Shown: positions 4,783 to 34,048, counted from the stretch's first letter. The stretch is 64,000 bases of DNA from Pelomicrobium sp. (GCA_035466595.1 DATIUV010000072.1:5816-69815), one strand, 5' to 3'. The notes: generated by a model from the sequence alone, not told the origin. Numbers and translations are program-made.

Positions 4783-4972
4783 GCGATGGGTGATAGGGGA
4801 ACGGGAAATCGGGTGATCGACGATGGGTGGTTGGGGACTCGGGCAGACCGAGGCGAAGCGCCGTTCAGCTACTGCTCATCAGGATCGCTCATCACCAATT
4901 GCTCATCACCGATCGCTCATCACCGATCGCTCATCACTCATCACCCATTGCCCATCACGGATCGCCCGTCAC
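4783..4972. repeat. Degenerate 11-14 nt tandem repeat array (unit about TCGCTCATCACCGA, about 8 copies at 4873-4972) with an inverted partner arm (4783-4835)
   Basis: Read directly from the sequence: tgctcatcagga / tcgctcatcaccaat / tgctcatcaccga / tcgctcatcaccga / tcgctcatcac / tcatcacccat / tgcccatcacgga / tcgcccgtcaccgc. The left arm (gcgatgggtgata, cgggtgatcga, cgatgggtgg) is the reverse complement of the same motif. Confidence 0.8.
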
Positions 4973-5946
4973 CGCTTCTTCGCGTCCGGGTTGACCAGGT
5001 TGGGCGGATTGCCGACCGTGAGCGCCGCGACCAGGTTGTCAGCCGCCTTCTTCGCCATGTTGTAGCGGGTGGTACGCGTCGAGCTCGCGATATGCGGCGC
5101 CAGCACCACGTTCCGGAGTTCGAGAAAACCGGGATGCAGCTTGGGCTCGCCTTCATAGACGTCGAGCCCGGCGGCGGCGATGGTGCCGTCCTTCAGCGCC
5201 GCCACCAGCGCGGCATCGTCCACCACCCCGCCGCGCGCGGCGTTGATGAGAATCGCCGAAGGCTTCATGCGCTTGAGTTCCGCAGCGCCGATCAGGTGAT
5301 GGGTTTCCGCCGAGTAGGGGCAATGCAGCGTGACGAAGTCCGACTGCTCCAGCAGCTCCTCCTTGGTGACCAGCGTGGCGTTGCAGCGGCTCTCGATCTC
5401 CGGCGCCACGCGCTTGCGGTTCCAGTAGAGGACCTTCATGTCGAAGCCGGCGGCGCGGCGCGCCACCGCCTGGCCGATGCGGCCCATGCCGACGATGCCG
5501 AGCGTGGCGCCGTGGACGTCGGCGCCCAGCAGCTGCTTCAGCTCCCAGCGCTTCCACTCGCCGTGGCGCAGATAGGCCTCGGCCTCGGTCAGGCGCCGGG
5601 CGGCGCCGAGGATGAGCGCCCAAGTGAAGTCGGCGGTGGCGTCGTCCAGCACGCCCGGCGTGTTGGTGACGAGGATGCCGCGCTTCGTGCACTCGGCCAC
5701 GTCGATGTTGTTGTAGCCCACCGCGATGTTGCACACCGCCTTCAGCTTCGGCGCATGGTCCAGCAGCGCGGCGTCCACTTTGTCGACGATGGACGTCATG
5801 ACGCCTTCCTTGTCGGCCAGCCGCTCGGCCAGCTCCTGCGCGGACCAGGTCTCGTCGGCCTGGTTGGCGGTGACGCCGAAGCGGGATTCGAGGCTCACGA
5901 TGACCTCGTCGAAGATTTCGCGGGTGACCAGGATCTTGGTTCTCAT
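4969..5946 (-). CDS. D-isomer-specific 2-hydroxyacid dehydrogenase (glyoxylate/hydroxypyruvate reductase B-like)
   Basis: 325 aa with the GxGxxG motif (GIVGMGRIGQAV) and the catalytic region LINAARGGVVD...APHIASST. Confidence 0.85.
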   Translation of the reverse strand: MRTKILVTREIFDEVIVSLESRFGVTANQADETWSAQELAERLADKEGVMTSIVDKVDAALLDHAPKLKAVCNIAVGYNNIDVAECTKRGILVTNTPGVLDDATADFTWALILGAARRLTEAEAYLRHGEWKRWELKQLLGADVHGATLGIVGMGRIGQAVARRAAGFDMKVLYWNRKRVAPEIESRCNATLVTKEELLEQSDFVTLHCPYSAETHHLIGAAELKRMKPSAILINAARGGVVDDAALVAALKDGTIAAAGLDVYEGEPKLHPGFLELRNVVLAPHIASSTRTTRYNMAKKAADNLVAALTVGNPPNLVNPDAKKR

Positions 5947-6051
5947 GCTCGGCAGGTCCGGGAGTTGGCGTTAACGCGGGATGGTGCGGCCGGGGCGGAG
6001 AAGTTTAGCACGGCCCCTGCCGGCAGCCGGCTTGTTGGTCCCTGCGCCTTC

Positions 6052-6068
6052 ATATACGCTTGGTATAT
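6052..6068. promoter_or_regulatory. 17-bp palindromic operator candidate, copy 1 (ATATACGCTTGGTATAT)
   Basis: ATATAC-N5-GTATAT inverted repeat 31 nt upstream of the panB-like start. It is one of three near-identical copies in the window. Confidence 0.6.
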
Positions 6069-6098
6069 CAGCTATCGCACAGAGCCAGGGAGGCCGTC

Positions 6099-6968
6099 GT
6101 GCCGGAGGAAAAGCGCGCCAAGCGCACCATCACCGAGATCCGCGACTCGAAAAAGACCGGCGAGAAGATGGTGTACATGTCTGTGCCGGACTACACGTCG
6201 GCGCGCTGGGCGGAGATGGCGGGCGTCGACGTGGCGGTGGTGGGCGACAGCCTGGCGATGGTGGCCCACGGCCACCCAAGCACCATCCCCGCGACCATGG
6301 ACATGATGGTGATGCACGCCCAGGCGGTGCGGCGCGGCGCGCCGAACACGTTCGTGCTGGGCTGCATGCCCTACCAGAGCTACAACACCGTCGACCGGGC
6401 GCTCGTCAACGCGACCCGTTTCATGCAGGAGGCGGCCTGCGACGCGGTCAAGCCGCAGGGCGGCAAGAGCCAGGCGCACATCCTCAGGGCGCTGGTGGAC
6501 GCCGGCATCCCGACGGCCTCGCATATCGGCCTGACGCCGCACACCATCGCCATGTTCGGCGGCTTCAAGATCCAGGGCCGCACCGCGGACGCGGCGATGA
6601 GAATCCTCGAGGACGCATTCGCCATCCAGGACGCCGGCTGCTTCATGCTCGAGTTCGAGGCCGTGCCGGCGAAGATCGCGAAAATCATCTCCGAGCAGCT
6701 CGAGATTCCCACCATCGGCATCGGCGCCGGCGTCGGCACCGACGGCCAGATCCTGCTCTCGTACGACCTGCTCGGCGTGTTCACCGACTTCAAGCCCAAG
6801 TTCACCAAGCGCTACAGCAACCTGACGGAGGTCGCGGTGAAGGGCATCCGCCAGTACGTCGACGAGGTGAAGACCGGAAAATTCCCCGACGACGACCACA
6901 GCTACGGCGTCGACGACGCCGAGTACGAGAGGTTTCTCGGCCTGGTCGAGCGCCGCAGGCAGCTCTGA
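6099..6968 (+). CDS. 3-methyl-2-oxobutanoate hydroxymethyltransferase family protein (PanB-like paralog)
   Basis: The PanB signature is present throughout (VGDSLAMV...HIGLTPH...IGIGAG). The start was moved to the GTG at 6099, preceded by AGGGAGG. The reported ORF start at 6060 is a TTG with no ribosome-binding site. Confidence 0.8.
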   Translation: MPEEKRAKRTITEIRDSKKTGEKMVYMSVPDYTSARWAEMAGVDVAVVGDSLAMVAHGHPSTIPATMDMMVMHAQAVRRGAPNTFVLGCMPYQSYNTVDRALVNATRFMQEAACDAVKPQGGKSQAHILRALVDAGIPTASHIGLTPHTIAMFGGFKIQGRTADAAMRILEDAFAIQDAGCFMLEFEAVPAKIAKIISEQLEIPTIGIGAGVGTDGQILLSYDLLGVFTDFKPKFTKRYSNLTEVAVKGIRQYVDEVKTGKFPDDDHSYGVDDAEYERFLGLVERRRQL

Positions 6969-6969
6969 G

Positions 6970-7701
6970 ATGCCGCGGGCAAGTTCCGCCGCCGCGGCGC
7001 GCAAGCGCACCGCTCCGCCCCGCCGGCGCTCGACGGCAGCGCGGCGCGACCGGCCGCCGCCGCTGAGCCTGACCGAGCGTGCCTACCGCGACCTCGAGGA
7101 ACTGATCGTCACCCTCAAGCTCGCGCCCGGCACTGCGGTGTCCGAGAGCGCGCTGAGCGAGCGCCTCGGCATCGGTCGCACGCCGATCCGCGAAGCGCTG
7201 CAACGGCTTGCGCGCGAGCGTCTGGTAACCATCCTGCCCCGCCGCGGCATCATCGTCTCCGAGGTGAACATCAAGAGCCAGCTGCGGCTGCTGGAGCTGC
7301 GCCGCGAAGTGGAGCGCCTGGTCGCGCGCTGCGCGGCGCGGCGCGCCAGCGAAGCGGAGCGCGCCCGCTTCGCCGAGCTCGCCGCCCTGTTCGAGAAGAG
7401 CGCGCGGGAAAACGACGACACCACCTTCCTGCGCATCGACCGCGAGTTCAACGAGCTGTGCGTGGCCGCCGCCCGCAACGAGTTCGCCAGCGTGGCGATG
7501 GGGCAGATGCAGTCGCTGTCGCGCCGGTTCTGGTACTTGCACTACAAGCAGGCGGCGGACCTGCCCGAGACGGCGCACCTGCACGCCGACATGGCGCGCG
7601 CCATCGCCGAGGGCAACCCGGAGGCGGCCGCCGCCGCGACCGATCGCCTGCTGGACAAGATCGAGTCGTTCACGCGCGCCACGGTGACGACGGATTTCTG
7701 A
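6970..7701 (+). CDS. GntR family transcriptional regulator (FadR subfamily, FCD C-terminal domain)
   Basis: Winged-HTH motif LSERLGIGRTPIREALQRLARERLV followed by a helical FCD-like domain. The N-terminal approximately 35 aa are Arg/Ala-rich, so the true start may lie further downstream. Confidence 0.85.
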   Translation: MPRASSAAAARKRTAPPRRRSTAARRDRPPPLSLTERAYRDLEELIVTLKLAPGTAVSESALSERLGIGRTPIREALQRLARERLVTILPRRGIIVSEVNIKSQLRLLELRREVERLVARCAARRASEAERARFAELAALFEKSARENDDTTFLRIDREFNELCVAAARNEFASVAMGQMQSLSRRFWYLHYKQAADLPETAHLHADMARAIAEGNPEAAAAATDRLLDKIESFTRATVTTDF

Positions 7702-7781
7702 GCCGCGATGCTGCATTGCCGCAGCCGCGCCACGCGCCGCGCTTGAAAAAACCGGGCCGGCAGGGCACACTTTGGGACTAG

Positions 7782-7798
7782 ATATACACCTGATATAT
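7782..7798. promoter_or_regulatory. 17-bp palindromic operator candidate, copy 2 (ATATACACCTGATATAT)
   Basis: Same motif as 6052-6068, located 59 nt upstream of the hydroxylase gene start at 7857. Confidence 0.6.
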
Positions 7799-7856
7799 TA
7801 GTGTCGCCGAATCCGTCAGGAGCGGCGCCGCAACCACCCGGCAGGAGGCAGCAGCC

Positions 7857-8678
7857 ATGACTACCCAAGACATGCTCGTCGAGCGCCACGCCATGGGCGA
7901 ACGCCAGCGCAAGTTCCGCCAGCAGTACATGTCGGAAGTCAGCCCGCTCTACAATGGTCCCTTCCACATCGGCGTCATCTACGTGGTGGGCGCCGCCGCC
8001 ATCTGGTGGTGCCTGACGCGGCTGGAGAACGCGACCTGGGAGTGGCTGCTGGTGATACCGGTGTTCGTGTTCTCGAACCTGTTCGAGTGGTGGATCCACA
8101 AGAACGTGATGCACCGGCTGAAGGACAAGTTCGCCCTGCGCGCGATCTACGACCGCCACACGCGCCAGCATCACGTCTATTTCTCGGACAACGAGATGAC
8201 GGTCGATTCCACGCGCGAGTGGCGCATCATCTTCTTTCCCTGGCGCGCGCTGTTCACGTTCATGGCGCTCGGCACGCCATTCGCGTTCCTGCTCGGCTGG
8301 CTGGTGAACCCGAACGCCGGCTACATCCTGATGATCACCATCGTCGGCCAATACCTGATCTACGAGACCTTCCACTACTGCTGCCACGTCCACGACAACT
8401 GGTTCGTGCGCAACATGCCGTTCGTCAACACCATCCGCCGCCACCACACCGTGCACCACAATGTCGGCGTGATGATGGACCTCAACATGAACCTCACTTT
8501 CCCCATCGCCGACTGGCTGATGGGCACCAGCGACCTCGACCGCGGCCTGCTGGGGCACATCTTCAACGGTTACAGCATGAAGCACCAGAAGCCCGAAGTC
8601 CGCGCCAAGATGCAGAAGTACATGAACGACGAGCAGGCAGCGGCCGCGGTCATCGACAGCGTTCGCCAGCCGGCCTGA
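7857..8678 (+). CDS. Fatty acid hydroxylase / sterol desaturase superfamily membrane di-iron enzyme
   Basis: 273 aa with hydrophobic segments and histidine boxes HKNVMHR, HTRQHH and HHTVHH. The ATG is preceded by AGGAGG. Confidence 0.8.
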   Translation: MTTQDMLVERHAMGERQRKFRQQYMSEVSPLYNGPFHIGVIYVVGAAAIWWCLTRLENATWEWLLVIPVFVFSNLFEWWIHKNVMHRLKDKFALRAIYDRHTRQHHVYFSDNEMTVDSTREWRIIFFPWRALFTFMALGTPFAFLLGWLVNPNAGYILMITIVGQYLIYETFHYCCHVHDNWFVRNMPFVNTIRRHHTVHHNVGVMMDLNMNLTFPIADWLMGTSDLDRGLLGHIFNGYSMKHQKPEVRAKMQKYMNDEQAAAAVIDSVRQPA

Positions 8679-8737
8679 GGTTCCCGCGCCGGCGACGGGC
8701 AACAAGACATCGAACCCAACCCAGAGGAGGAGGCAAC

Positions 8738-9817
8738 ATGAAGCAGGGACGCAGACAGGCACTCAAGGCGCTGGGCGCCACCGGCTTGCTGGCCGCCGTG
8801 GCCAGCGCGCGCGACGCGGCGGCTCAGCAGGGCGGCCCGAGCTACAGCTTCAAGATGGCCACCGCCTGGTCCGGCGGCCCGCTCATGGACATCGGCGCCA
8901 AGGCATTCGCCGAGAATCTCGAGTTTCTCTCGGGCGGCCGCATGAAGGTGCAGGTTTTCCCCGGCGGCGCGCTCGGCAACGCGCTCAAGGTTTCCGAAAC
9001 GGTCAAGAACGGCATCGCCGAGATGGGCCACACCTGGATGGGCTACGACTGGGGCGCCGACCCCACCACGGTGGCGTTCGGCGGCTACGCCGGCAGCTTC
9101 AATTCCGAGTACATGCTGCACTGGCTGTATCAGGCCGGCGGCGTCGAGATGCAGCGCCAGTTCCGCGAGGAGAAATTCGGCATCGTTTCGATGCCGCTGT
9201 TCATCCGCACCGCGGAGGTGTTCCTGCACTCGCGCAAGCCGGTCCGCACGCTCGACGACCTCAAGGGCCTGAAGATGCGCACCGCCGGTGCCTGGATCGA
9301 GATGTCGAAGGAGCTCGGCGCCGCGCCGGTGACGACCCCCGGTGGCGAGATTTACCCCGCGCTGGAGCGCGGCGTCATCGACGCGACCGAGTGGGGCACG
9401 CTGTGGGAGAACATCACGCCCGGCTTCTACAAGGTCGCCAAGTACCTGATCATCCCGGGGGTGCATCAGCCCACGGCGCCGTTCGAGCTCTGCATCAACA
9501 AGGGAGTCTGGGACAAGCTGTCGACCAACGACCGTCGCCTGATCGAGATGACCGCCCGGCTGGTGACCTACGACTGTTTCACGCGCATCGGCCAGGAGGA
9601 TGCCAAGGCGCTGGACTTCTACAAGAAAGCGGGCAACGAGATCATCGAGCTCGACCCCGAGGTCCAGTACCGCGGCCGCGAGATCGGCCTCAACTGGGGC
9701 GACAAGACCGCCGACGCGAATCCCTGGTTTGCCAAGGTGCACAAGAGCCAGCGCGAGTTCGAGGCGCTCTGGAAGGACGCGCCGCGCTACCGTAACGTCA
9801 AGGTGCGGCCGGCCTGA
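8738..9817 (+). CDS. TRAP transporter substrate-binding protein (DctP-like, COG4663 type) with Tat-like signal
   Basis: Begins MKQGRRQALKALGATGLLAAVASA after GAGGAGGAGG. The start was trimmed from the long ORF 8006..9817. It is a paralog of the protein at 18278..19429. Confidence 0.85.
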   Translation: MKQGRRQALKALGATGLLAAVASARDAAAQQGGPSYSFKMATAWSGGPLMDIGAKAFAENLEFLSGGRMKVQVFPGGALGNALKVSETVKNGIAEMGHTWMGYDWGADPTTVAFGGYAGSFNSEYMLHWLYQAGGVEMQRQFREEKFGIVSMPLFIRTAEVFLHSRKPVRTLDDLKGLKMRTAGAWIEMSKELGAAPVTTPGGEIYPALERGVIDATEWGTLWENITPGFYKVAKYLIIPGVHQPTAPFELCINKGVWDKLSTNDRRLIEMTARLVTYDCFTRIGQEDAKALDFYKKAGNEIIELDPEVQYRGREIGLNWGDKTADANPWFAKVHKSQREFEALWKDAPRYRNVKVRPA

Positions 9818-9834
9818 CGGCCGCGATGCGGCAA

Positions 9835-9875
9835 GCCGGCGGGACCGCACGGACGCGGCGTCCCGCCGGCTTTTT
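9835..9875 (+). terminator. Intra-operon hairpin plus T5 (partial terminator/attenuator) between the TRAP binding protein and permease genes
   Basis: GCCGGCGGGAC-N14-GTCCCGCCGGC followed by TTTTT. Confidence 0.6.
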
Positions 9876-9937
9876 CGTTCGCGCCCGCGCGCACGGCGCC
9901 GGGGCGCCGCATCCGACGAACCCGAATCCGACTGCCG

Positions 9938-10459
9938 ATGCTGTCCTGGCTGCTCCGCTTTCTCGACCGGGTGACCGGTACCTCCGGTGCCGTGGTCGCC
10001 TGGCTGGTGATCCCGCTGATCGCCGCCAGCTGCTACGAGGTGTTCTCGCGCTACGTGCTCAACGAGCCCACGCTGTGGGCGTTCGAGGTGGGCTACATGG
10101 TGATGGGCACCCACTTCCTGGTCGGCATGGCCTATACCCTGCGCGAGAACGAGCACGTGCGCGTGGACCTCTTGTACGCCCGCCTCTCGCCCAGGCTGCA
10201 GGCGCTGGTGGACACCTTCACCTACGTCTGCCTGCTGTTGCCCCTCACGCTGTGGCTTTCGGTGAGCCTGTGGGACAAGGTGCTCAAGGCCTACGAGTCG
10301 CAGGAGCGCTCGGGCATGTCGGCGTTCAATCCGCTGATCTGGCCGTACCGCGCGGTGTTCTTCACCGCATTCGTGCTGCTCAGCCTGCAGGCGATCGCCC
10401 AGCTGATCCGCTGCTACCAGACACTGACCGGCCGGGGCCGTGACGAAAGCGACGCATGA
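9938..10459 (+). CDS. TRAP transporter small permease (DctQ-like)
   Basis: 173 aa with 4 predicted TM segments. It overlaps the downstream dctM-like start by 4 nt. Confidence 0.85.
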   Translation: MLSWLLRFLDRVTGTSGAVVAWLVIPLIAASCYEVFSRYVLNEPTLWAFEVGYMVMGTHFLVGMAYTLRENEHVRVDLLYARLSPRLQALVDTFTYVCLLLPLTLWLSVSLWDKVLKAYESQERSGMSAFNPLIWPYRAVFFTAFVLLSLQAIAQLIRCYQTLTGRGRDESDA

Positions 10460-11778
10460 GCGAATACCTGCCGCTGTTCATGCTGCTGGCGATGTTCGTC
10501 CTGATCTTCCTGGGCGTGCACGTCGCGTTCGCGCTGATGGGCACCGCGCTCATGTTCGGCTTCGCCATCTTCCAGGGCGCGGTCATCTTCCAGTTCATGG
10601 AGAAGATCGAGGACATCGCGTCCAACTTCGTGCTGGCGGCGGTGCCGCTGTTCGTGTTCATGGGCACCATGCTGGAGCGCTCCGGCATCGCCGAGCAGCT
10701 GTTCGAGGCGGTGCATCTGTGGACGCGGCGGCTACCGGGCGGCCTCGCGCTGGGCACCGTGATCATGTGCGTGATCTTCGCCGCGTCCACCGGCGTGATC
10801 GGCGCGACCGAGACCGTGGTCGGACTGCTGGCGATCCCGGCCATGATGAAGTACGGCTACAACAAGCCCCTCATCTGCGGCACGATCTGCGCCGGCGGCT
10901 CGCTGGGCACGATCATCCCGCCGTCGGTCGTGGTCGTGGTACTGGGACCGGTCGCCAACGTATCGGTGGGCGACCTGATGGTGGGCATGATCTTCCCGGG
11001 CATGATCATGGCCGGCCTGTACCTGCTCTATATTCTCGTGCTGTGCCTGATCCGGCCCGAGGCCGGGCCGCGCATTCCGCCCAGCTCGGACGACCCGCCG
11101 CTCGTGCAGCGGCTCCTGACCACGGCCCACGCGCTGGTGCCGCCGCTGTTCATGATTTTCGCCGTGCTGGGCTCCATCATGCTCGGCTGGGCGGCGCCCA
11201 CCGAGGCCGCCGCCCTGGGCGCCTTTGGCGCCATCCTGCTCACCATCTTCTACCGCCGGTTCAGCCTGGCGACGCTGAAGGATTCCGCCCTGAAGACGCT
11301 GCGCATCACGTCCATGATCATGGCGATCCTGCTGGGCGGCACCATCTTCACCGGCGTGTTCTTCGCCGGCGGCGGCATCAATCTGACCAACCAGCTGGTG
11401 TCGCACATGGACCTGGGACCGTGGGGACTGCTGTTCCTGCTGCTCGGGATCTGCTTCCTGGCGGGCTTCGTGCTGGACTGGATCTCGATCCTGCTCATCT
11501 TCATCCCGATCTTCATGCCGCTGGTGAACGGTGCCGGCTTCGACCCCGTGTGGTTCTGCATCCTGTTCCTCATCATCATCCAGACCAGCTACCTGACGCC
11601 GCCGCTGGCGCCGGCAATTTTCTACCTGCGCGGCATCGCACCGCCGTCGATCACGCTGATCGACATGTACAAGGGCGTCGTTCCGTTCATCCTGCTGCAG
11701 GTCGCGACGCTGGCGGTGGTGATGACGTTTCCGCAAACTGTTCTCTGGCTGCCGGACAAGCTGCTCGGCTTCCGGTAG
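10456..11778 (+). CDS. TRAP transporter large permease (DctM-like)
   Basis: 440-aa polytopic protein that aligns by eye with the second DctM at 16249..17595. Confidence 0.9.
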   Translation: MSEYLPLFMLLAMFVLIFLGVHVAFALMGTALMFGFAIFQGAVIFQFMEKIEDIASNFVLAAVPLFVFMGTMLERSGIAEQLFEAVHLWTRRLPGGLALGTVIMCVIFAASTGVIGATETVVGLLAIPAMMKYGYNKPLICGTICAGGSLGTIIPPSVVVVVLGPVANVSVGDLMVGMIFPGMIMAGLYLLYILVLCLIRPEAGPRIPPSSDDPPLVQRLLTTAHALVPPLFMIFAVLGSIMLGWAAPTEAAALGAFGAILLTIFYRRFSLATLKDSALKTLRITSMIMAILLGGTIFTGVFFAGGGINLTNQLVSHMDLGPWGLLFLLLGICFLAGFVLDWISILLIFIPIFMPLVNGAGFDPVWFCILFLIIIQTSYLTPPLAPAIFYLRGIAPPSITLIDMYKGVVPFILLQVATLAVVMTFPQTVLWLPDKLLGFR

Positions 11779-11802
11779 CCGTGTCGCCAAGGAGGCAAAC
11801 CC

Positions 11803-12708
11803 ATGACACCCGAACAAGTCCTCGCCGTCGAGCCGAAGATCCTGACCCGGGAGCAGCGCGAGTTCTACTTCGCCAACGGCTATCTGGTGCTGGAGCGCAT
11901 CATTCCGCAGGAGTGGCTCGCGAAGCTGCGCGCCGCCACCGAGGAACTGGTCGAGCGCAGCCGCGCGATCACGAAATCGGACGCGATCTACGACCTCGAG
12001 CCGGACCACCGACCCGACGCCCCGCGCCTGCGCCGGGTCTCCAATCCCGTCGAGCAGCACCCGGCGTTCTGGGAGTACTGCTCGCGCTCGCTGCTGGGCG
12101 ACGTCGTCGCCGACCTGGTGGGCCCGGACGTCAAGTTCCACCACTCCAAGCTCAACTTCAAGTGGGCCAAGGGCGGCGAGGAAGTGAAGTGGCATTACGA
12201 CATCGGCTTCTGGCCCCACACCAACTACTCGCCGCTCACGGTGGGCACCTACCTCTACGACTGCGGCATGGACCAGGGCCCGCTCGGCGTGCTGCCGGGC
12301 AGCCACGAGATCGAGCCGATGTTCTCGCAATACGACGACAAGGGCGAGTGGATCGGCTGCCTCAAGCCGGCCGACGCGGCGAAGCTCGACCTGTCGAAGG
12401 CCGTGTTCCTGCCGGGCCCCGCGGGCTCGATCACGATTCACAACTGCCGCACGCTGCACTACTCGGCCAAGAACACGTCCGATCTCGGCCGGCCGCTGCT
12501 GCTGTTCGCCTACTCGTCGGCCGACGCGTTTCCCTACACGGTGAACCCGATCCGCTCGAAGTACGATCAGGCGATCATCCGCGGCCAGCCCGCGCGCTGG
12601 GCGCACCACGATCCGCGCCCGTGCCTGATGCCGCCCGACTGGTCGGGCGGCTACACCTCGATCTTCGCCCTGCAGCAGGAGGAGGCGAAGAAGGCGGCGG
12701 CGATGTGA
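11803..12708 (+). CDS. Phytanoyl-CoA dioxygenase (PhyH) family Fe(II)/2-oxoglutarate dioxygenase
   Basis: 301 aa. Begins REFYFANGYLVLE, has the HxD motif in VKWHYDIGFW, and a distal His in ITIHNCRTLHYS. Confidence 0.8.
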   Translation: MTPEQVLAVEPKILTREQREFYFANGYLVLERIIPQEWLAKLRAATEELVERSRAITKSDAIYDLEPDHRPDAPRLRRVSNPVEQHPAFWEYCSRSLLGDVVADLVGPDVKFHHSKLNFKWAKGGEEVKWHYDIGFWPHTNYSPLTVGTYLYDCGMDQGPLGVLPGSHEIEPMFSQYDDKGEWIGCLKPADAAKLDLSKAVFLPGPAGSITIHNCRTLHYSAKNTSDLGRPLLLFAYSSADAFPYTVNPIRSKYDQAIIRGQPARWAHHDPRPCLMPPDWSGGYTSIFALQQEEAKKAAAM

Positions 12709-12760
12709 CGGCGCTGCGTTCCATTGCCTGAGGACGGGAGCCGTTTTTCGTGAGGGGCGC

Positions 12761-14092
12761 GTGAACGCCATCGATTTGCGCGAGGGCCTGCGCGTCGAGG
12801 CCGACGTCGTCGTGGCGGGCGGCGGCGCGGCCGGCGTCGCGGCGGCGGTGACCGCGGCGCGCCAGGGCCTCCGGGTGGCGCTGGTCGAGCGCTACGGCTT
12901 CTGCGGCGGCGGCGCCGTCGCGGGCATGTCGGGAACGATCTGCGGCCTGTACCTGGCGCGCGACGGAGACGCGGGCCCGGAGCAGGTCGTGTTCGGCTTC
13001 GCCGACGAATTCCTCCGCCTGCTTGCGGCCCGCGGCGGCATCACGCCGGCGGTGCGCTACGGCAAGACCTGGACCCACGTCCATGACCCGCTGGTGTGGC
13101 GCGAGGCCGCCGATCACCTGTTGCGGGAAGCGGGCGTCCACGTGTTCCTGCACAGCACGGTCACCGATGTCCTGCTCGAGGGCGACCGGGCGCAGGGCCT
13201 GATCGCCTACAACAAGCAGGGCAAGCTCGAAATTCGCGCGAAGGTGACCATCGACGCCAGCGGCGACGCCGATCTCGTCGCCATGGCCGGGTGGCCGTCC
13301 TTCGTCGGCGATGGCGGTCGGGTGCAGAATCCAACCATGATCTTCCGCCTGGGCGGCGTCGACACCGCGCGCTTCCTGCAGGCCTACGGAGCCGACACCA
13401 TCATGCCGGAGCAGGTTTCCGAGCTGCTGCGGCGGCATCACGGCCAGGGCTACACGCTGCCGCGTGCGAAGATCTGGCTGTTCACCACGCCGCGACCCGG
13501 CGAACTGCTATGCAACTGCACCCGCGTCATTGGCCCCGACGGCCGCGAGCTGAACACGCTCTACGCCGCCGATTTCACCGACGCCGAAATCGAGGGCCGG
13601 CGCCAGGTCCGCGAGTACGCGCGTTTCTTCCGCGATCACCTGGCGGGCTGCGAGGCGAGCTTCGTCAACGACACGGGCGTGCAGGTCGGCGTGCGCCAGA
13701 CGCGGCAAGCGCGCGGCACGGCGCTGCTTGCCAACGAGGACGTCGTCGCGGCGCGCAAGTTCGCCGACGGAATCGCCCGCTCGCCGTGGCCGATCGAGCT
13801 GCACGCCGGCCAACGACCCCGCGTCGAGTGGATCCTGGATGACTTCTACGAGGTGCCCTACGGCTGTTTCGTGCCGCAGACCGGCGACGGTCTGCTGCTG
13901 GCGGGGCGCTGCCTCTCGGCACAGCATGAGGCCGTGGCCTCCGCCCGGGTCACGGCGCAGTGCTTCAGCTACGGCCACGCGATGGGCCACGCGGCGGCCA
14001 TGTGCATCGCGGACCGCTGCGAGCCGCGGCAGCTCTCCGGGACGGACGTGCGCGCCCGGGTCAGCCGCGACGGCGCGCGCCTCGATCGGTAA
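12761..14092 (+). CDS. FAD-dependent oxidoreductase (FAD_oxidored/GIDA-like family)
   Basis: N-terminal dinucleotide fold DVVVAGGGAAGVAAAVTAARQGLRVALVE. 443 aa. Confidence 0.8.
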   Translation: MNAIDLREGLRVEADVVVAGGGAAGVAAAVTAARQGLRVALVERYGFCGGGAVAGMSGTICGLYLARDGDAGPEQVVFGFADEFLRLLAARGGITPAVRYGKTWTHVHDPLVWREAADHLLREAGVHVFLHSTVTDVLLEGDRAQGLIAYNKQGKLEIRAKVTIDASGDADLVAMAGWPSFVGDGGRVQNPTMIFRLGGVDTARFLQAYGADTIMPEQVSELLRRHHGQGYTLPRAKIWLFTTPRPGELLCNCTRVIGPDGRELNTLYAADFTDAEIEGRRQVREYARFFRDHLAGCEASFVNDTGVQVGVRQTRQARGTALLANEDVVAARKFADGIARSPWPIELHAGQRPRVEWILDDFYEVPYGCFVPQTGDGLLLAGRCLSAQHEAVASARVTAQCFSYGHAMGHAAAMCIADRCEPRQLSGTDVRARVSRDGARLDR

Positions 14093-14204
14093 GCTCCCGG
14101 CATCCCGTATCGCTTCGCCCCCGCTGTTCGGCACCACTCGCCGTCTGCGCCCGGCCGCCGGCCGGGTTTGACCCAGATCAAAGACAGCGGCCTCCAGATC
14201 GGTA

Positions 14205-14221
14205 ATATATCAGGCGTATAT
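14205..14221. promoter_or_regulatory. 17-bp palindromic operator candidate, copy 3 (ATATATCAGGCGTATAT, the reverse complement of the ATATACGCCTGATATAT form)
   Basis: Third copy of the motif, 24 nt upstream of the ATG at 14245. Confidence 0.6.
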
Positions 14222-14244
14222 CAAAGCTCTCGACGGAGGCCCGA

Positions 14245-14577
14245 ATGACGGTCAACGCTTTCCTGGTTCTGGCATTGCTCGGCGTGCTGGCGAGCGCGTT
14301 CTGGTGGCTGCTGCTGCGGCAGGCGGCGCGGGCGACGACCGCGCGGCCGCCAACGCTGTTCGCTCGCATGCGCGAGCACCTGGGGATCGACCTGGCGAGA
14401 ACGCCGGTGTCCGGCGCTGCGCCAGCGGTTGCCGAGGCGACCGAGCGCTGCGGCCGCTGCACGCATCCCGCGGAGTGCCGTGAGTGGCTGGCGACCGACA
14501 AGGGCAGTCGGGCGCCGGGGTTCTGCGTCAACGCCACGCTCCTGGCCGAACTGCAGGAACAGACGCGGCGGAACTAG
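14245..14577 (+). CDS. Small membrane-anchored Cys-rich protein of unknown function (DUF6455-like by recollection)
   Basis: 110 aa with an N-terminal TM helix and the motif CGRCTHPAECREWL...FC. It is directly preceded by the operator copy and a GGAGG site. Confidence 0.55.
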   Translation: MTVNAFLVLALLGVLASAFWWLLLRQAARATTARPPTLFARMREHLGIDLARTPVSGAAPAVAEATERCGRCTHPAECREWLATDKGSRAPGFCVNATLLAELQEQTRRN

Positions 14578-14888: not shown

Positions 14889-16259
14889 TTACGCCGACCT
14901 GACCGATTTTTCCAGCCAGCGCGCCGTGCGCAGCAGGCGGGCGTCGTCCATGCGCTGCCCGACCAGCTGCACACCCAGCGGCATACCGTTTTCGCCCTGC
15001 AATAGCGGCAGCGTCAACGCGGGCGTGCCGCACAGCGTCCACAGGGTGCAATAGATCGGATCGCCGGTGCCTTCCTCGAACCTGGGTGCCGTGCCAAGGG
15101 TCGCCGGCGTCAGGATGGCGTGGTACTCGCCGAAGATCTCGTCTAGCACGCGGTTCAGCAAGGGAATGCGGTCCACGCAGTTGAGGTAATCGACGGCACG
15201 CACCTCACGGCCGCGCTCGATCTGCCCGCGCAGCGACGCCGACAACTTGTCCCGACCCTCGTCGTATTCCTGGGCGAAGCTGCGCGCCAGATCCGCCTCC
15301 ATGATGGTCTTGTGCCACGCCACGGCCTGCAGAAACGTCGCCGGGAGTTCAACCTCGGTGACGCTGCCGCCGAGGTGCTCCACCAGCTCGGCGAAGGCCT
15401 CCTGGGTATCCGGCGATGTCCGGTCCCAGGCGGGCGCCTTGATGAAGGCGAACCGCGGCTCGAGCGGCACCTCCTGGCGGGAGGTCTCGAGCAAAGGGGG
15501 CCGCGCCGTCAGCTGCGTCGCGGGATCGTCCTCGTCGTACCCGGTGAGGGTCTCCGCGATGAGCGCGATATCCTCGATCGAGCGCCCCATCACGCCGACC
15601 TGGTCCAGCGGTCGCGACTGGCGCAGCACGCCGGAGCGGGGAATCATGCCGAAGGTGGGCTTGTAGCCGTAGACGCCGCAATAGGCGGCCGGGCGGATCA
15701 CCGAGCCATTCGTCTGCGTGCCGACCGCCAGAGGCGCCATGTAAGAAGCCACGGCAGCGGCCGAGCCGCTCGAAGACCCGCCGGGTGTATGCGCCGGATT
15801 GTGCGGATTGCGTGTCTTTCCCGGCGCGTAGGTCGCCAGCTCGGTGGTGACCGTTTTGCCGAGGACGATCGCGCCATCGGCGCGCAGCCGCCGGATGAGC
15901 GCCGCGTCCTGGCGTGGAATGCGGCCCTCGTGCAGGACGGTACCGTCGCCGGTCGGCATGCCGCGGACGTCGATGATGTCCTTGATCGCCACGGGCACGC
16001 CGTGAAGCCGCCCGAGGGGCCGGCCCTGCCGCCGGTGTTCGTCGAGCGCCCGCGCCTGCTCGAGGACGTGCTCGGGGCCGAGGAAGGCCCAGGCCTCCAC
16101 CGAGGCGTCTACGTCGCGGATGCGCTCGAGGCAGTCCGTCACCGCCTGCTCAGTCGACACGAGCCCGGTCGCGATGGCGTCGCGCAACGCCACCGCGCCC
16201 AACGCGGCGCGCGTCGCCGGCGCGTCCACGGGCCTTACCGGTTCGTGCTCAGTTGCCAT
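14889..16259 (-). CDS. Amidase-signature family amidase (GatA-like)
   Basis: 456 aa with the amidase signature GGSSSGSAAAVA. Confidence 0.9.
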   Translation of the reverse strand: MATEHEPVRPVDAPATRAALGAVALRDAIATGLVSTEQAVTDCLERIRDVDASVEAWAFLGPEHVLEQARALDEHRRQGRPLGRLHGVPVAIKDIIDVRGMPTGDGTVLHEGRIPRQDAALIRRLRADGAIVLGKTVTTELATYAPGKTRNPHNPAHTPGGSSSGSAAAVASYMAPLAVGTQTNGSVIRPAAYCGVYGYKPTFGMIPRSGVLRQSRPLDQVGVMGRSIEDIALIAETLTGYDEDDPATQLTARPPLLETSRQEVPLEPRFAFIKAPAWDRTSPDTQEAFAELVEHLGGSVTEVELPATFLQAVAWHKTIMEADLARSFAQEYDEGRDKLSASLRGQIERGREVRAVDYLNCVDRIPLLNRVLDEIFGEYHAILTPATLGTAPRFEEGTGDPIYCTLWTLCGTPALTLPLLQGENGMPLGVQLVGQRMDDARLLRTARWLEKSVRSA

Positions 16260-17595
16260 AGAGCTGGTTGGGCAGCCAGGCCACCAGTTCCGGGAAGATG
16301 TAGACCAGGATCATCGACACGAACACCATGCTCAGGAACGGGAAGCAGCCCTTGAAGATGGTCCACAACTGCACGTGCGGCGGTGCGATGCCCTTCAGAT
16401 AGTAGGCCGACATCGCCATCGGTGGTGTCAGGAACGACGTCTGCAGGTTCAGCGCCACCAGGATGCCGAAGAACATCGGGTCGATGTTGAAGTGCGGCAG
16501 CAACGGCAGGAAGATCGGCACGAAGATGATGATGATCTCGCTCCACTCCAGCGGCCAACCGAGAATGAAGATGATGATTTGTGCCAGGATCAGGAACGTG
16601 ATCGGCGTCAGGTCCATGCCCAGCACCCAGTCCTTGATCAGACCCTCGCCGCCGAGATAGGAGAACACCGACGAAAACGTCCACGACCCGACGAACAGCC
16701 AGCACACCATCGCCGAGGTGCGCGCCGTCAGGAACACCGCCTCCTTCAGCCGCTCCCAGGTCAGCGCTCGGTACGCGGCGGCCAGCACGATGCCGCCGAA
16801 CGCCCCGACCGAGGCGGCTTCCGTCGGCGTCGCCAGGCCGAACAGGATCGAGCCCAGCACCGCCAGGATCAGCACCGCCAGCGGTATGAACGCTTTCAGC
16901 AGCAGAAGCAGCACCTGGCCCCAGGGAACGTTCGATTGCTCCTTCGGCAGCTTCGGCGCCAGTTGCGGGCGCAGGATGCCGACGCCGATCACGTAGAGCA
17001 TGTACAGACCGGCAAGCAGGAAGCCCGGAAAAAGCGCCGCCGCGTAGAGCTTCACCACGGAAACCGCGGAGGTCGCGCCGTAGACGATGAGCATGATCGA
17101 AGGCGGGATCAGGATGCCCAGCGTGCCGCCGGCGCAGATCACGCCGGCCGAGAGCTTCTGATCGTAGCCCGCCTTCAGCATCGCCGGGAACGCCAGCAGG
17201 CCCATCAGCGTGACGACGGCGCCGACGATGCCGGTCGCGGTGGCGAACATCGCGCAGGTGGCAAGCGCCGCCACCGCCATGGCCGCCGGCACGCCGCGGA
17301 ACGCCAGCTGCAGGCTCAAGAACAGCCGGTCCAGGATGTTGGCCCGTTCGACGATGTAGCCCATGAACAGAAACAAGGGCACCGCCACCAGCACGTCGTT
17401 GTTCATGACGCTGAACGTGTTCTGCGACAGCAGGTAGAACACGCGGTTGTCGAAGAACGTCTGGTCCGGCACGTAATAGGCGTAATAGCCGAAGCCGACG
17501 CCCATCGCCATCAGCGTGAAGGCGATCGGGAAGCCCAGCAGAATGATGAAAATGAACAGGCCCAGCATCAGCAGGGCGACTTCGGGGTTGGTCAC
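16249..17595 (-). CDS. TRAP transporter large permease (DctM-like), system 2
   Basis: 448-aa polytopic protein, paralog of 10456..11778. Confidence 0.9.
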   Translation of the reverse strand: MTNPEVALLMLGLFIFIILLGFPIAFTLMAMGVGFGYYAYYVPDQTFFDNRVFYLLSQNTFSVMNNDVLVAVPLFLFMGYIVERANILDRLFLSLQLAFRGVPAAMAVAALATCAMFATATGIVGAVVTLMGLLAFPAMLKAGYDQKLSAGVICAGGTLGILIPPSIMLIVYGATSAVSVVKLYAAALFPGFLLAGLYMLYVIGVGILRPQLAPKLPKEQSNVPWGQVLLLLLKAFIPLAVLILAVLGSILFGLATPTEAASVGAFGGIVLAAAYRALTWERLKEAVFLTARTSAMVCWLFVGSWTFSSVFSYLGGEGLIKDWVLGMDLTPITFLILAQIIIFILGWPLEWSEIIIIFVPIFLPLLPHFNIDPMFFGILVALNLQTSFLTPPMAMSAYYLKGIAPPHVQLWTIFKGCFPFLSMVFVSMILVYIFPELVAWLPNQLYGN

Positions 17596-18188
17596 TTGGC
17601 GTTCTCCCCGGCCATCTTCGCATGGTCCTGGTGCTGGGCCAGCACCGCCGTTTCCATCTCCTCGACGTCATGCAGCCGCGGCGGCCATTTGCCCTCCCGC
17701 AGGGCGATGAAGCAGCGGATCACCTCCGCCACCCCCTGGATCGCCAGCAGCAGGCCGGCCAGCGGAATCAGCGCCTTCAACTGGAAGATCGGCACGCCCA
17801 CCGGGCTGTTGACGCTGACCTCCTGGATGCGGATCGAATCCCAGGCGTAGCCGCCGCCCGCGATGATGAGCGAGAGCACGCCGGGGAAGAAGAAAATGAT
17901 GTAGAGCGTCAGCTCGACGCCGGCCTGCACGCGGATCGGCCACAGGCGGTAGAACACGTCGCCACGGACATGGGCGTTCCTTGACAGGGCATAGGCGCCG
18001 GACATCAGGAACAGGCCGCCGTAAAGGATGTAGCTCATGTCGAATGCCCAGCTGGTCGGGTCCCGCAGCGCATAGCGCACGAATACCTCGTAGACCGTGC
18101 CGAAAGTCAGGATGAGAATGCACCACGCAAAGGCATGGCCGACCGACTTGGAGAGCTGGTCGATGGCCTGCAACAGTCGATTGAGCAT
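17592..18188 (-). CDS. TRAP transporter small permease (DctQ-like), system 2
   Basis: 198 aa with 4 TM segments. There is a 4-nt overlap with dctM. Confidence 0.85.
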   Translation of the reverse strand: MLNRLLQAIDQLSKSVGHAFAWCILILTFGTVYEVFVRYALRDPTSWAFDMSYILYGGLFLMSGAYALSRNAHVRGDVFYRLWPIRVQAGVELTLYIIFFFPGVLSLIIAGGGYAWDSIRIQEVSVNSPVGVPIFQLKALIPLAGLLLAIQGVAEVIRCFIALREGKWPPRLHDVEEMETAVLAQHQDHAKMAGENAK

Positions 18189-18213
18189 CGCGGCACCCGG
18201 AGTGGGTTCGGAT

Positions 18214-18244
18214 ATGAAACGGGGCGGCGCACGCGCGCCGCCCC
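18214..18244 (-). terminator. Intra-operon GC hairpin (attenuator candidate) between the TRAP-2 binding protein and permease genes
   Basis: Minus strand reads GGGGCGGCGC-gcgt-GCGCCGCCCC followed by GTTTCAT, a weak U tract. Confidence 0.4.
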
Positions 18245-18277
18245 AACGGTTGGACCTAGCTCAAGTCGGCGCGAGCC

Positions 18278-19429
18278 CTAGAACGGCAGCTTGCCGAAAA
18301 TGTGCTCGTAGCCGGTCTTGTAATCCGCGTCGTTGAAGAAATGGTAGTAGGCGACGCGCTTGGCCCAGGCCTTTTGCGAGTCCACCACCTTCTTGAAGAA
18401 CGGATCGGCGTCGGACAGACGCTTGGTGATGACGTCCCAGGCCTTGAGCTGGGCCTCGAACACCGACTTCGGCGTGCGGTGAACCTTGACGCCGTGCTTG
18501 TTGATGAGCTCCTGCAGGTCCTTCGAGTAGTTGTCGAGGCCGGTCCAGAAGTTGGACGACGATGCCGCCTCGGCCGAGTAGCGCAGCACGGCCTGCAGAT
18601 CCTTCGGCAGGGCGTTGTACTTTTTCTTGTTGATCAGGATCTCGAAGAACTCCATCGCCTGGTGATAGGAGCCCATCATGTAGATCTTGCGCACGTCCTG
18701 GGCGCCGAACCGCATGTCCGAGGTCGGGTTGTTGAACTCGAACGCCTCGATGACGCCGCGCTCGAGGGCCGGCACGATCTCGCCGCCGGGCAGCTGCGTC
18801 ACCTTGACGCCCATTTCCTGCATCAGGTCGGCGGCCAGACCCACGGTGCGGTACTTCAGGCCCTTGAGGTCGTCGGCGCTCTTGATTTCCTTCGAGAACC
18901 AGCCGAGCGGCTGGGTCGGCATCGGCATCGCAAAGAAGCCGACGACGTCCAGACCGATCTTGCCCAGCAGCTCGTTGTAGAGCTCGAGCCCGCCACCACG
19001 GTAAATCCAGGCCAGCTGCTGGTGAGCGTCACAGCCGGTGATCGGGCCCGAGCCGAACAGCGACGCCACCTTGCTCTTGCCGTACCAGTACACCGGCACC
19101 GAGTGACCGGCATCGAGCACGCCCTTGGACACCGCGTCGGTCACCTCGAAGGGCTTCACGACCGCGCCGCCCACCAGGTAATCGATCTTCAGGCGGCCCT
19201 CGGACATCTCGTTGACACGCTTGACGTACTCCTCGGCCATCTCGTTGAAGATGTCCTTGGCACCCCAGGCGCCCTGCATCTTGATGACGATCGGCGACTG
19301 CGCGACGGAGATCATCGGGAAGCCGGCGATGGCCGCGCCCGTGGTGGCCGCAGCGGCCCCCTTCAGGAACTTGCGGCGGGAAGTCTTGACCTCGCCCTCG
19401 ACGGCGGGCTTGCGGGTTTCCTCACTCAT
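18278..19429 (-). CDS. TRAP transporter substrate-binding protein (COG4663 type) with Tat signal, system 2
   Basis: Has SRRKFLKGAAAATTGAAIAGFPMISVAQS. The mature part aligns with the protein at 8738..9817. Confidence 0.9.
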   Translation of the reverse strand: MSEETRKPAVEGEVKTSRRKFLKGAAAATTGAAIAGFPMISVAQSPIVIKMQGAWGAKDIFNEMAEEYVKRVNEMSEGRLKIDYLVGGAVVKPFEVTDAVSKGVLDAGHSVPVYWYGKSKVASLFGSGPITGCDAHQQLAWIYRGGGLELYNELLGKIGLDVVGFFAMPMPTQPLGWFSKEIKSADDLKGLKYRTVGLAADLMQEMGVKVTQLPGGEIVPALERGVIEAFEFNNPTSDMRFGAQDVRKIYMMGSYHQAMEFFEILINKKKYNALPKDLQAVLRYSAEAASSSNFWTGLDNYSKDLQELINKHGVKVHRTPKSVFEAQLKAWDVITKRLSDADPFFKKVVDSQKAWAKRVAYYHFFNDADYKTGYEHIFGKLPF

Positions 19430-22700: not shown

Positions 22701-22704
22701 CGCG

Positions 22705-25649: not shown

Positions 25650-25661
25650 GCGTCCCTCCGC

Positions 25662-26402: not shown

Positions 26403-26487
26403 GGGAAGGTTGATAGACCGAAGACGATGCCGACAGTGGATCGATGATAGCACGCGGTCTGCGGGCCTCCGCCGCGGCTGCGGATGG

Positions 26488-26516
26488 TTGTCCGGAGAAA
26501 TTTCATAATGTAAAAT
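26488..26516 (+). promoter_or_regulatory. Candidate sigma-70 promoter for the iclR-family gene (TTGTCC-17-TAAAAT) enclosing the palindrome GAAATTTC
   Basis: Read from an AT-rich patch in the lutA/iclR divergent region. Confidence 0.35.
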
Positions 26517-26553
26517 TCCGCCCAATTGTTGCAGCGCAAGAGGAAACCCACCT

Positions 26554-28431: not shown

Positions 28432-28496
28432 GGTCGGGAACGGGTCCGGCTTCTTGGGCTGCCGCGGGTCGCCGGTCCCCGCGACGGAAGTTCTAT

Positions 28497-34019: not shown

Positions 34020-34048
34020 CAAAATATCTGCTGTATTTTCAATAATCT

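Follow-up and report, generated by a model that had tools for sequence, protein, structure and literature searches.

What is a gene of the pantothenate-biosynthesis family panB doing beside a membrane hydroxylase and an organic-anion importer? This question is raised by a cluster on the plus strand of a 64,000-nucleotide stretch of Pelomicrobium sp. DNA (GCA_035466595.1, DATIUV010000072.1:5816-69815; hereafter the window, with positions counted from its first letter), where a member of the PanB (ketopantoate hydroxymethyltransferase, KPHMT) family is followed by a GntR/FCD regulator, a membrane di-iron hydroxylase of the fatty-acid-hydroxylase/sterol-desaturase superfamily (FAH), a tripartite ATP-independent periplasmic (TRAP) importer (DctPQM), a PhyH-family dioxygenase, an FAD-dependent oxidoreductase (FADox) and a small DUF6455 protein. 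The cluster is very probably a catabolic unit, conserved and under common regulation, whose centre is a neofunctionalised PanB, called the PanB-like protein below. Our main reading, to which we give a probability of roughly 0.4, is that a GntR/FCD-repressed regulon serves the uptake and O2-dependent breakdown of a small branched 2-oxo- or 2-hydroxycarboxylate. A reading made from the sequence alone had not recognised the gene combination as a described pathway, and no paper or curated model was found for it: literature searches on the cluster, on a KPHMT paralogue with PhyH, on panB with sterol desaturase, on sterol desaturase with TRAP, GntR or corrinoid genes, and on DUF6166 returned nothing describing the cluster, and the Pelomicrobium literature held nothing that helps to explain it.

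A shared putative operator and a separate PanB clade

The 64 kb contain exactly three copies of a 17-bp palindrome, ATATAC-N5-GTATAT (none in 100 shuffles), and these lie only at the promoters of PanB-GntR, of the hydroxylase-TRAP-PhyH-FAD operon and of the DUF6455 gene. The first putative operator (ATATACGCTTGGTATAT, 6052-6068) has perfectly matching arms around a 5-bp spacer and lies 31 bp before the start of the PanB-like gene. The second (ATATACACCTGATATAT, 7782-7798) overlaps the -10 hexamer of a sigma-70-like promoter predicted at 7772-7799, upstream of the hydroxylase; an operator over the -10 box is the classic position for a repressor. The third (ATATACGCCTGATATAT on the minus strand, 14205-14221) lies 24 bp upstream of the DUF6455 gene and has a counterpart in a related locus (L011). 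When up to 2 mismatches were allowed in 88 related loci (1.46 Mb), 83 sites were found versus about 5 in shuffles; they lie upstream of FAH (31), the PanB-like gene (28), a corrinoid-protein operon (8), a methyltransferase-corrinoid fusion (3) and, where PanB is absent, GntR (5). Exact matches upstream of FAH also occur in Methylobacterium nodulans and in Halomonas sp. KO116, in both on plasmids. Moreover, in metagenome loci anchored on the PanB-like protein and fetched independently, 34 of 42 sites are upstream of its gene. In total, the palindrome recurs at equivalent positions in about 100 related loci, and the PanB-like and FAH genes have a common operator in dozens of loci from three proteobacterial classes. 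A winged-helix domain, an FCD domain and palindromic sites at the regulated promoters are all present, and the GntR protein is presumed to be the repressor that binds the three operators. These results show one predicted palindromic operator, in three copies, controlling PanB-GntR, FAH-DctPQM-PhyH-FADox and DUF6455. The proposal that the cluster genes form one functional unit is therefore strengthened by a common GntR operator, one copy of it over the hydroxylase -10 box, and co-expression, whose absence had been named beforehand as telling against that proposal, is upheld by comparison of the common operator across loci.

The window has a G+C content of 65-72%, so that long spurious open reading frames (ORFs) are frequent, and the real frames were chosen by G+C at third codon positions together with family-profile matches. 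All genes of the cluster lie on the plus strand: the PanB-like gene at 6099-6968 (PF02548, 321 bits, full length), the GntR/FCD regulator 1 nt after it at 6970-7701 (PF00392 and PF07729), FAH at 7857-8678 (PF04116, 36.9 bits against a cutoff of 31), the TRAP solute-binding protein DctP at 8738-9817 (PF03480), the small membrane subunit DctQ at 9938-10459 (PF04290, 92 bits), the large membrane subunit DctM at 10456-11778 (PF06808, 241 bits; TIGR00786, 298 bits), the PhyH-family Fe(II)/2-oxoglutarate dioxygenase at 11803-12708 (PF05721, 92.6 bits), FADox at 12761-14092 (PF12831, 407 bits) and the 110-aa DUF6455 protein at 14245-14577 (PF20056, 57.9 bits). The successive gaps are 1, 155, 59, 120, -4, 24, 52 and 152 nt, with dctQ and dctM overlapping by 4 nt. 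The PanB-like protein and FADox are identical to proteins of a "Pelomicrobium sp." metagenome-assembled genome. Every gene that the sequence-only reading had named was recovered by profile searches, but it had overlooked DUF6455, and the frames of PanB and DctQ, both real genes, needed correction to those given here. The ORFs 5981-7066, 6072-7010 (minus strand) and 9826-10443 were rejected as wrong frames, with no family matches in the profile searches.

The PanB-like protein passes the panB family models (PF02548 positions 2-258 of 259; TIGR00222, 286 bits against a cutoff of 207.55; NF001452, 310 against 272), which explains its annotation as an ordinary panB. It is nevertheless far from canonical PanBs. 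The window copy shows 87% identity with a copy on an M. nodulans plasmid and 88% with those of Methylibium and a Rhodovibrionaceae genome, and the whole clade holds 85-90% identity across Alpha- and Betaproteobacteria; identity with E. coli PanB is 39%, the PanBs of Burkholderia, M. tuberculosis and Neisseria are similarly far, and solved PanBs in general share about 39-44%. In a library of 1.84 billion cluster representatives, identities are at least 84%, then 52% (a PanB2-type paralogue) and then 47% or lower. A PanB match is present in 396 plasmid records, and identity rises above 60% for the M. nodulans copy only. Relatives are encoded by at least 578 metagenome stretches, which stem from soils, rhizospheres, groundwater and lakes, and the best 80 are all 85-90% identical. 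Within the cassette this steadiness is peculiar to the PanB-like protein: FAH and GntR fall to 42-60% over the same range, which indicates unusually strong constraint on the PanB-like protein together with horizontal spread.

The clade also differs at the active site. Cys89 and Gln120 of the PanB-like protein occupy the positions of E. coli Asp84 and Glu114, and every one of the 134 clade members that the fetched loci contain has Cys/Gln there; the paralogues PanB2 and PanB3 carry Ser or Ala, and Gln. The canonical seven-residue pattern, including Asp84 and Glu114, is present in 124 of the 150 best representatives and in all five solved PanBs. Asp45, Ser46, Lys112, His136 and Glu181 (the proposed base) are retained. 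In a pocket test of six residues (Asp45/46, Asp84, Lys112, Glu114, His136 and Glu181), four are kept and two replaced. Asp84 and Glu114 are among six KPHMT residues called strictly conserved and probably essential (PMC13488298). With two conserved pocket residues replaced, the protein was not filed as a canonical KPHMT. No panC, panD or panE was present in the window or in any locus examined. These results show a separate clade with, to judge from its residues, a remodelled metal and substrate pocket, in which Cys89 suggests Zn, Fe or Co as the metal. The idea that this PanB copy is a specialised paralogue rather than an ordinary panB is supported by the discreteness of the clade and by its Cys/Gln pocket.

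A paralogous module lies beside many of the cassettes (L018 15239-16285, L024 18057-19774, L049 15100-17733 and others). It contains PanB2 (about 53% identical to the PanB-like protein, with Ser/Ala84 and Gln114), a second PhyH (about 25% identical), a PF13714 enzyme of the phosphoenolpyruvate (PEP)-mutase family, another TRAP system and sometimes a GntR gene. The more distant PanB3 (31%) comes after the second PhyH in L029 and L039.

Could the cluster be a housekeeping panB lying by chance beside an unrelated transporter operon, with a "sterol desaturase" that modifies membrane lipids? The PanB-like protein does pass TIGR00222, and FAH homologues are labelled lipid biosynthesis in RefSeq. However, a PanB-FAH operator common to dozens of loci in three proteobacterial classes, 87% identity of the PanB-like protein between a Hydrogenophilia/Burkholderiales-type genome and a Methylobacterium plasmid, a discrete clade with an altered pocket, and panC nearby in no locus examined make such an accident extremely improbable. 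We discarded the housekeeping reading of panB on the common operator, the discrete clade and the altered pocket, and lipid modification by FAH on the operator that it shares with the PanB-like gene in dozens of loci.

Conserved core and exchangeable accessories

A genome scan anchored on FAH yielded 80 loci, almost all from uncultured Burkholderiales-type metagenome-assembled genomes (MAGs), plus Pelomicrobium sp. G1, and the set anchored on the PanB-like protein consists of the best 80 of the metagenome stretches mentioned above. Co-occurrence was counted in loci with enough flank (73 FAH-anchored and 34 PanB-anchored), and cassette composition was mapped by tblastn. The cassette has the order PanB-GntR-(methyltransferase plus B12 domain)-FAH-DctPQM-(PhyH and/or FADox)-(corrinoid/tetrahydrofolate genes), the last block comprising a corrinoid protein, a URO-D methyltransferase, a methyl-tetrahydrofolate (methyl-THF):corrinoid methyltransferase, the reductive activator RACo and methylenetetrahydrofolate reductase (MTHFR). 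The PanB-like gene is found in 46 and GntR in 52 of the 73 FAH-anchored genome loci, while FAH and GntR, the latter next to the PanB-like gene, are each found in 27 of the 34 PanB-anchored metagenome loci. These results show that the conserved, horizontally mobile core is PanB-GntR-FAH. The transporter slot varies, being filled by TRAP, by a Leu/Ile/Val (LIV)-type ABC system in the same position, or by a major facilitator superfamily (MFS) protein. Hence, of the PhyH/hydroxylase/TRAP trio singled out earlier for a neighbourhood check, FAH stands as a core member, but PhyH, FADox and TRAP turn out to be exchangeable accessories.

It is also evident that the gene on the left flank is no constant part of the cluster. 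This D-isomer 2-hydroxyacid dehydrogenase (GhrB-like; 4969-5946, minus strand, divergent from the PanB-like gene) matches PF02826 and PF00389 and scores 374 bits with the NF009714 glyoxylate reductase model, under the cutoff of 455. It lies beside the cluster in 6 of 73 FAH-anchored and 2 of 34 PanB-anchored loci, the closest relatives only (L012-L014 and L131). Although it is next to the operator-bearing intergenic region, such limited conservation makes it at most an accessory, and its earlier listing as a flank gene of the cluster holds only for the closest relatives.

Cultured and other named carriers differ in composition. Methylibium petroleiphilum and other Methylibium have the PanB/GntR/FAH trio with no dedicated transporter; plasmid pMNOD02 of M. 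nodulans bears GntR, MFS, FAH, DUF6166 and panB; and a Rhodovibrionaceae MAG has the order PanB-GntR-DUF6166-DctPQM-PhyH-FAH-hemerythrin. Plasmid p1 of Azospirillum brasilense Sp7 carries FAH, a PEP-mutase-family enzyme, an iron-containing alcohol dehydrogenase (Fe-ADH), DctPQM, PhyH and GntR but no PanB; its DctP, unannotated, is the closest cultured orthologue of that in the window (75% identity), and its PhyH is 69% identical. Indioceanicola has TRAP, GntR, FADox, an IlvD-like gene and PhyH. The Azospirillum and Cupriavidus plasmid loci were annotated by hand.

In the Methylibium loci (L099-L102), the trio has a urate/purine catabolism cluster on one side and a malonate decarboxylase (mdc) operon on the other, with an amidohydrolase gene immediately upstream of the PanB-like gene on the same strand. 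Distant FAH homologues (about 40% identical) occur on conjugative plasmids of Hydrogenophaga sp. PBL-H3 (L098) and Dinoroseobacter shibae (pDSHI01, L097), flanked by insertion sequences in the pattern of mobile catabolic modules. DUF6166, a protein of about 100 aa, often adjoins the hydroxylase in Alpha-, Beta- and Gammaproteobacteria (L093 10627-10917; L096 8853-9415; L098 7593-7904; L103 9241-9528), where the window has DUF6455 instead. In some loci it is accompanied by a tiny hypothetical protein (with one transmembrane helix in L096), and L103 adds a hemerythrin. DUF6166 has no metal motif, and the idea that it is an electron carrier was dropped.

Substrate, hydroxylases and one-carbon metabolism

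All three TRAP components are encoded together, each above its profile cutoff. The best Protein Data Bank (PDB) sequence matches of DctP are the Thermus lactate-binding protein TTHA0766 (139 bits), 2hzk, 5cm6, 4pet and 7ug8, a "ketoacid-binding protein", with ligands taken from the molecule names of the entries. TRAP binding proteins in general need a carboxylate. By sequence, DctP falls among the TRAP binding proteins for lactate and 2-oxoacids, in line with the importer for an organic anion that had been proposed. The alternative ABC binding proteins of related loci are nearest to Leu/Ile/Val-binding proteins. Moreover, the accessory enzymes in relatives (IlvD-like dihydroxy-acid dehydratase, lyase/decarboxylase-type PF13714 enzyme, Fe-ADH, aldo-keto reductase and 2-hydroxyacid dehydrogenases) all work on 2-oxo or 2-hydroxy acids.

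Such a substrate could be pantoate itself: the TRAP system would import pantoate or ketopantoate, a dehydrogenase would form ketopantoate, the PanB-like protein would split it into 2-oxoisovalerate and methylene-THF by reversed biosynthesis, and the hydroxylases would act on later or related gem-dimethyl intermediates. The five retained pocket residues and the score above the panB equivalog cutoff are in keeping with this, as are the D-2-hydroxyacid dehydrogenase that abuts the same operator region, the amidase and second TRAP system next door in the window, and the PEP-mutase-family enzymes and Fe-ADH of relatives, which resemble the classical aldopantoate/dimethylmalate route. It would, however, leave FAH, the most conserved partner, without a role, and the changed metal site would be unexpected for the canonical substrate; furthermore, the dehydrogenase and amidase are found only in the closest relatives, and DctP is only distantly related (54 bits) to 4p9k and 4pak, the latter presumably with bound pantoate. 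We therefore consider pantoate catabolism rather unlikely.

FAH carries four His motifs, HKNVMH, HTRQHH, HYCCH and HHTVHH (HX4H, HX3HH, HX3H and HHX2HH), whose 11 His are invariant in 31 homologues; the family had been named correctly from the sequence, but three His boxes had been counted instead of four. Its AlphaFold2 (AF2) model is all-helical (pLDDT 78), and the sole PDB fold match is the hydroxylase domain of Scs7p (probability 1.0, TM-score 0.47), so that the predicted structure confirms the superfamily only. The surroundings of FAH (a transporter, a GntR/FCD regulator and soluble 2-oxoacid enzymes) point indirectly to a small-anion substrate, not a lipid. PhyH has, as read from its sequence, the iron triad H-x-D...H (WHYD plus the distal His in IHNCRTLHYS), and with Asp rather than Ala or Gly in the triad it is taken to be a hydroxylase rather than a halogenase. 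Its nearest solved relatives, the ectoine hydroxylase EctD, the sugar-modifying EvdO2 and the leucine hydroxylase 5nch, which we take to hydroxylate a terminal methyl, act on free small molecules. The AF2 model of FADox (pLDDT 78) matches only generic two-domain flavoprotein folds (TM-score at most 0.51), so a function cannot be assigned from structure, and homologues of 76-89% identity bear no functional names; FADox may be a dehydrogenase, of 2-hydroxyacids or of other compounds, or may supply the hydroxylase with electrons. The DUF6455 protein, with one N-terminal transmembrane helix and a C-x2-C-x5-C...C (Cys4) motif, belongs to the predicted regulon and, more speculatively, is a candidate metal or electron-transfer partner for FAH. 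No specific match resulted when FAH, FADox, the methyltransferase (MT) domain and the URO-D methyltransferase were searched against PDB sequences.

The sister loci connect the cassette to one-carbon (C1) metabolism. One example is a Burkholderiales MAG in which genes for B12-binding, URO-D, pterin-binding and RACo-MTHFR proteins surround the FAH-TRAP-FADox block. The pterin-binding protein of sister loci falls in the methyl-THF:corrinoid/iron-sulfur-protein methyltransferase family (302 bits against 259, NCBIfam), the corrinoid proteins are nearest to the MtgC/MtbC type but below those cutoffs, and the fused MT domain is marginally URO-D-like (23 bits); DUF1638, formyltetrahydrofolate synthetase (FTHFS) and a homocysteine S-methyltransferase domain protein also lie inside sister cassettes. 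PhyH alone is present in 30 loci, the MT-corrinoid fusion alone in 20, both in 2 and neither in 28 (P = 6e-4, Fisher's exact test, with kinship between loci ignored), and the alternation is seen across both TRAP subtypes. Because a corrinoid methyl-transfer chain stands in the place of PhyH in 20-22 sister loci, the common theme appears to be the stripping of C1 units into the folate pool. The corrinoid protein, methyltransferases I and II and the reductive activator are absent from the 64-kb window, and Rfam and tRNA scans found nothing, including no cobalamin or THF riboswitch. To the sequence-only reading, with its O2-dependent or redox tailoring enzymes, a strong link to THF-dependent C1 metabolism, visible only in sister loci, has to be added. 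In one locus of planctomycete-like context (PSCyt/DUF1501 genes; L007 10001-11464), a hydroxylase 72% identical to FAH has a SASA-family esterase on one side and a glutathione-dependent formaldehyde-activating enzyme on the other, a hint that formaldehyde may be formed.

These C1 genes could be explained by demethylation at heteroatoms, where O-, N- or S-methyl groups would be removed by FAH/PhyH with O2, or by the corrinoid system without it, as formaldehyde or methyl-THF, and the PanB-like protein, running forward, would be a C1 sink that uses up methylene-THF or formaldehyde as it hydroxymethylates a 2-oxoacid. The alternation of PhyH with the corrinoid MT fusion, the full methyl-to-THF chain with MTHFR and FTHFS in sister loci and the formaldehyde-activating enzyme of L007 agree with such a scheme, for which the membrane di-iron O-demethylase MocD of rhizopine catabolism is a precedent. 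Yet it would need a stoichiometric 2-oxoacid acceptor, its product would accumulate, minimal loci (Methylibium and L110) have PanB, GntR and FAH without other C1 enzymes, and the altered PanB pocket would be left unexplained; on balance it is unlikely. A reading with a slimmer chance is that methoxylated lignin-derived aromatic acids (vanillate, syringate or aryl-2-oxoacids) undergo corrinoid or oxygenase O-demethylation and then flavin-dependent hydroxylation. The URO-D-like MT, corrinoid protein, pterin-binding MT and RACo of sister loci match anaerobic aryl O-demethylases in architecture, aromatic acids enter other bacteria through both TRAP and LIV-type ABC systems, and the FADox fold resembles flavin monooxygenases and halogenases. 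None of the about 170 loci, however, has ring-cleavage or aromatic-pathway genes; the PanB-like, PEP-mutase-family and IlvD-like enzymes point to aliphatic 2-oxoacids, and DctP is nearest to lactate/ketoacid binders.

For the main reading, breakdown of a branched 2-oxo- or 2-hydroxycarboxylate, the steps would be as follows. A TakP-like TRAP system (a LIV-type ABC or MFS transporter in other lineages) would import the acid; FAH would oxidise a methyl on the carbon adjacent to the 2-oxo or 2-hydroxy group to a C-hydroxymethyl; PhyH, where present, would add to the same oxidation; and FADox or a 2-hydroxyacid dehydrogenase would set the 2-oxo state. The PanB-like protein would then run the KPHMT reaction backwards, passing the hydroxymethyl to THF as 5,10-methylene-THF; a shortened 2-oxoacid would remain and enter central metabolism. 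The corrinoid chain of sister loci would supply the same intermediate, or additional C1 units, from methyl groups. This mechanism, hydroxylation to a C-hydroxymethyl and removal by the PanB-like protein as methylene-THF, is put forward tentatively, at somewhat less than even chances. More doubtful is the specific proposal that the PanB-like protein and FAH together perform a previously unrecognised removal of a carbon-bound methyl from a branched or quaternary 2-oxoacid by a folate-dependent retro-aldol reaction on a Cys/Gln metal site. Sterol C4-methyl oxidase and fatty-acid 2-hydroxylase are among the relatives of FAH, methyl hydroxylation by PhyH- and PF04116-family enzymes is known and KPHMT is reversible; the combination of such hydroxylation with KPHMT reversal has no precedent. 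The earlier idea of a branched carboxylate oxidised to a 2-oxoacid for the PanB-like enzyme remains the best reading of the locus, its mechanism being held at that tentative level.

Several observations weigh against the main reading. The PanB-like protein scores above the NCBI panB equivalog cutoff, and the direction of its reaction is suggested by the catabolic context alone; the Cys/Gln swap could also mean that the chemistry is altogether different, for example in its metal, in doing without folate or in the bond concerned. Enzymes of the fatty-acid-hydroxylase superfamily usually have lipid substrates. FAH stands alone in about 15 loci, and its occurrence alone or beside the formaldehyde-activating enzyme (L007) fits heteroatom demethylation equally well. 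Furthermore, a corrinoid methyltransferase is no step-for-step substitute for a C-H hydroxylase, so the near-exclusion of PhyH and the MT fusion fits only if the precursors differ (methyl versus methoxymethyl) or the methyls are heteroatom-bound.

Flanking genes, known systems and implications

To the right of the cluster, the window encodes on the minus strand (14889-19429) an amidase (PF01425) and then a second, different TRAP system (DctM 16249-17595, DctQ 17592-18188 and a Tat-signal DctP 18278-19429). The amidase also adjoins the cluster in L011, L013, L014 and L131, as does the second TRAP system where the flank reaches; no GntR operator precedes these genes in the window. Further along are a lactate/2-hydroxyacid utilisation block (21098-27336, minus strand; LutC, 2-hydroxyacid dehydrogenase, aldehyde dehydrogenase, LutB and LutA-like) with a divergent IclR regulator, an EgtD-like histidine-specific S-adenosylmethionine methyltransferase of the hercynine/ergothioneine type (27400-28584, minus strand; PF10017, 343 bits) and three clustered SoxA/TsdA-type cytochrome c genes (32613-37142, minus strand; 411, 275 and 276 aa), which suggest thiosulfate oxidation. 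A dense run of small genes at 52600-63750 (minus strand) resembles, by ORF sizes only, a ribosomal-protein/secY/rpoA operon, which would indicate a chromosomal origin of the window.

In its workings the system resembles other catabolic operons that are GntR-controlled and TRAP-linked, and its parts come from known superfamilies. The PanB-like protein shares the Pfam family and the TIM-barrel PEP-mutase/isocitrate-lyase superfamily with PanB (EC 2.1.2.11; E. coli 1M3U, M. tuberculosis 1OY0), but it is under a GntR operator, tied to a hydroxylase and transporters instead of panC, and horizontally mobile, including on a plasmid. FAH shares with ERG25/sterol methyl oxidase (SMO) and Scs7p/FA2H (PF04116) the nature of a membrane di-iron enzyme and the typical His motifs; it differs in lying in a small-anion transporter/regulator operon, without a cytochrome b5 domain and without lipid genes nearby. 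SMO oxidises a methyl on a quaternary carbon next to the C3 oxygen function, an analogue of the chemistry proposed here. As in TakP/TTHA0766-type TRAP systems, DctPQM is complete in the window, although DctP similarity is moderate and no orthologue has been solved. Sister loci follow the same methyl-to-cobalamin-to-THF logic as chloromethane utilisation (cmuA/cmuB/metF2/folD/purU) and anaerobic O-demethylases, with an MT-corrinoid fusion, methyl-THF:corrinoid methyltransferase, RACo, MTHFR and FTHFS; the window has PhyH instead of any of these, and a further difference is the coupling to a carboxylate transporter and the PanB-like protein. The operon combines a PhyH-family hydroxylase with a di-iron oxygenase, which recalls the two-step oxidative cleavage of the PhnY*/PhnZ type, where a 2-oxoglutarate dioxygenase acts before a di-iron oxygenase, and the best NCBIfam match of GntR is the phosphonate regulator PhnR (only 68 bits against a cutoff of 271.5). 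The di-iron enzyme of the window is, however, a membrane PF04116 protein rather than an HD-domain protein, and a phosphonate reading was rejected on the absence of HD-domain and phn genes from the window and related loci.

Thousands of genes are now labelled as ordinary panB (pantothenate biosynthesis) and as "sterol desaturase" (lipid biosynthesis). Because genes of the PanB-like clade sit in one mobile, co-regulated catabolic unit, both labels are probably wrong there. The system is tractable, with a defined operator, regulator and binding protein and with cultured hosts in Methylibium petroleiphilum, Methylobacterium nodulans, Azospirillum brasilense Sp7 and Pelomicrobium. If the proposed function is true, the KPHMT reaction would for the first time have a catabolic use, sterol C4-demethylation would gain a small-molecule counterpart, and carbon-bound methyl groups would have a new route into folate C1 metabolism, by which soil and freshwater bacteria, several methylotrophs among them, could draw C1 units from methyl-branched acids.

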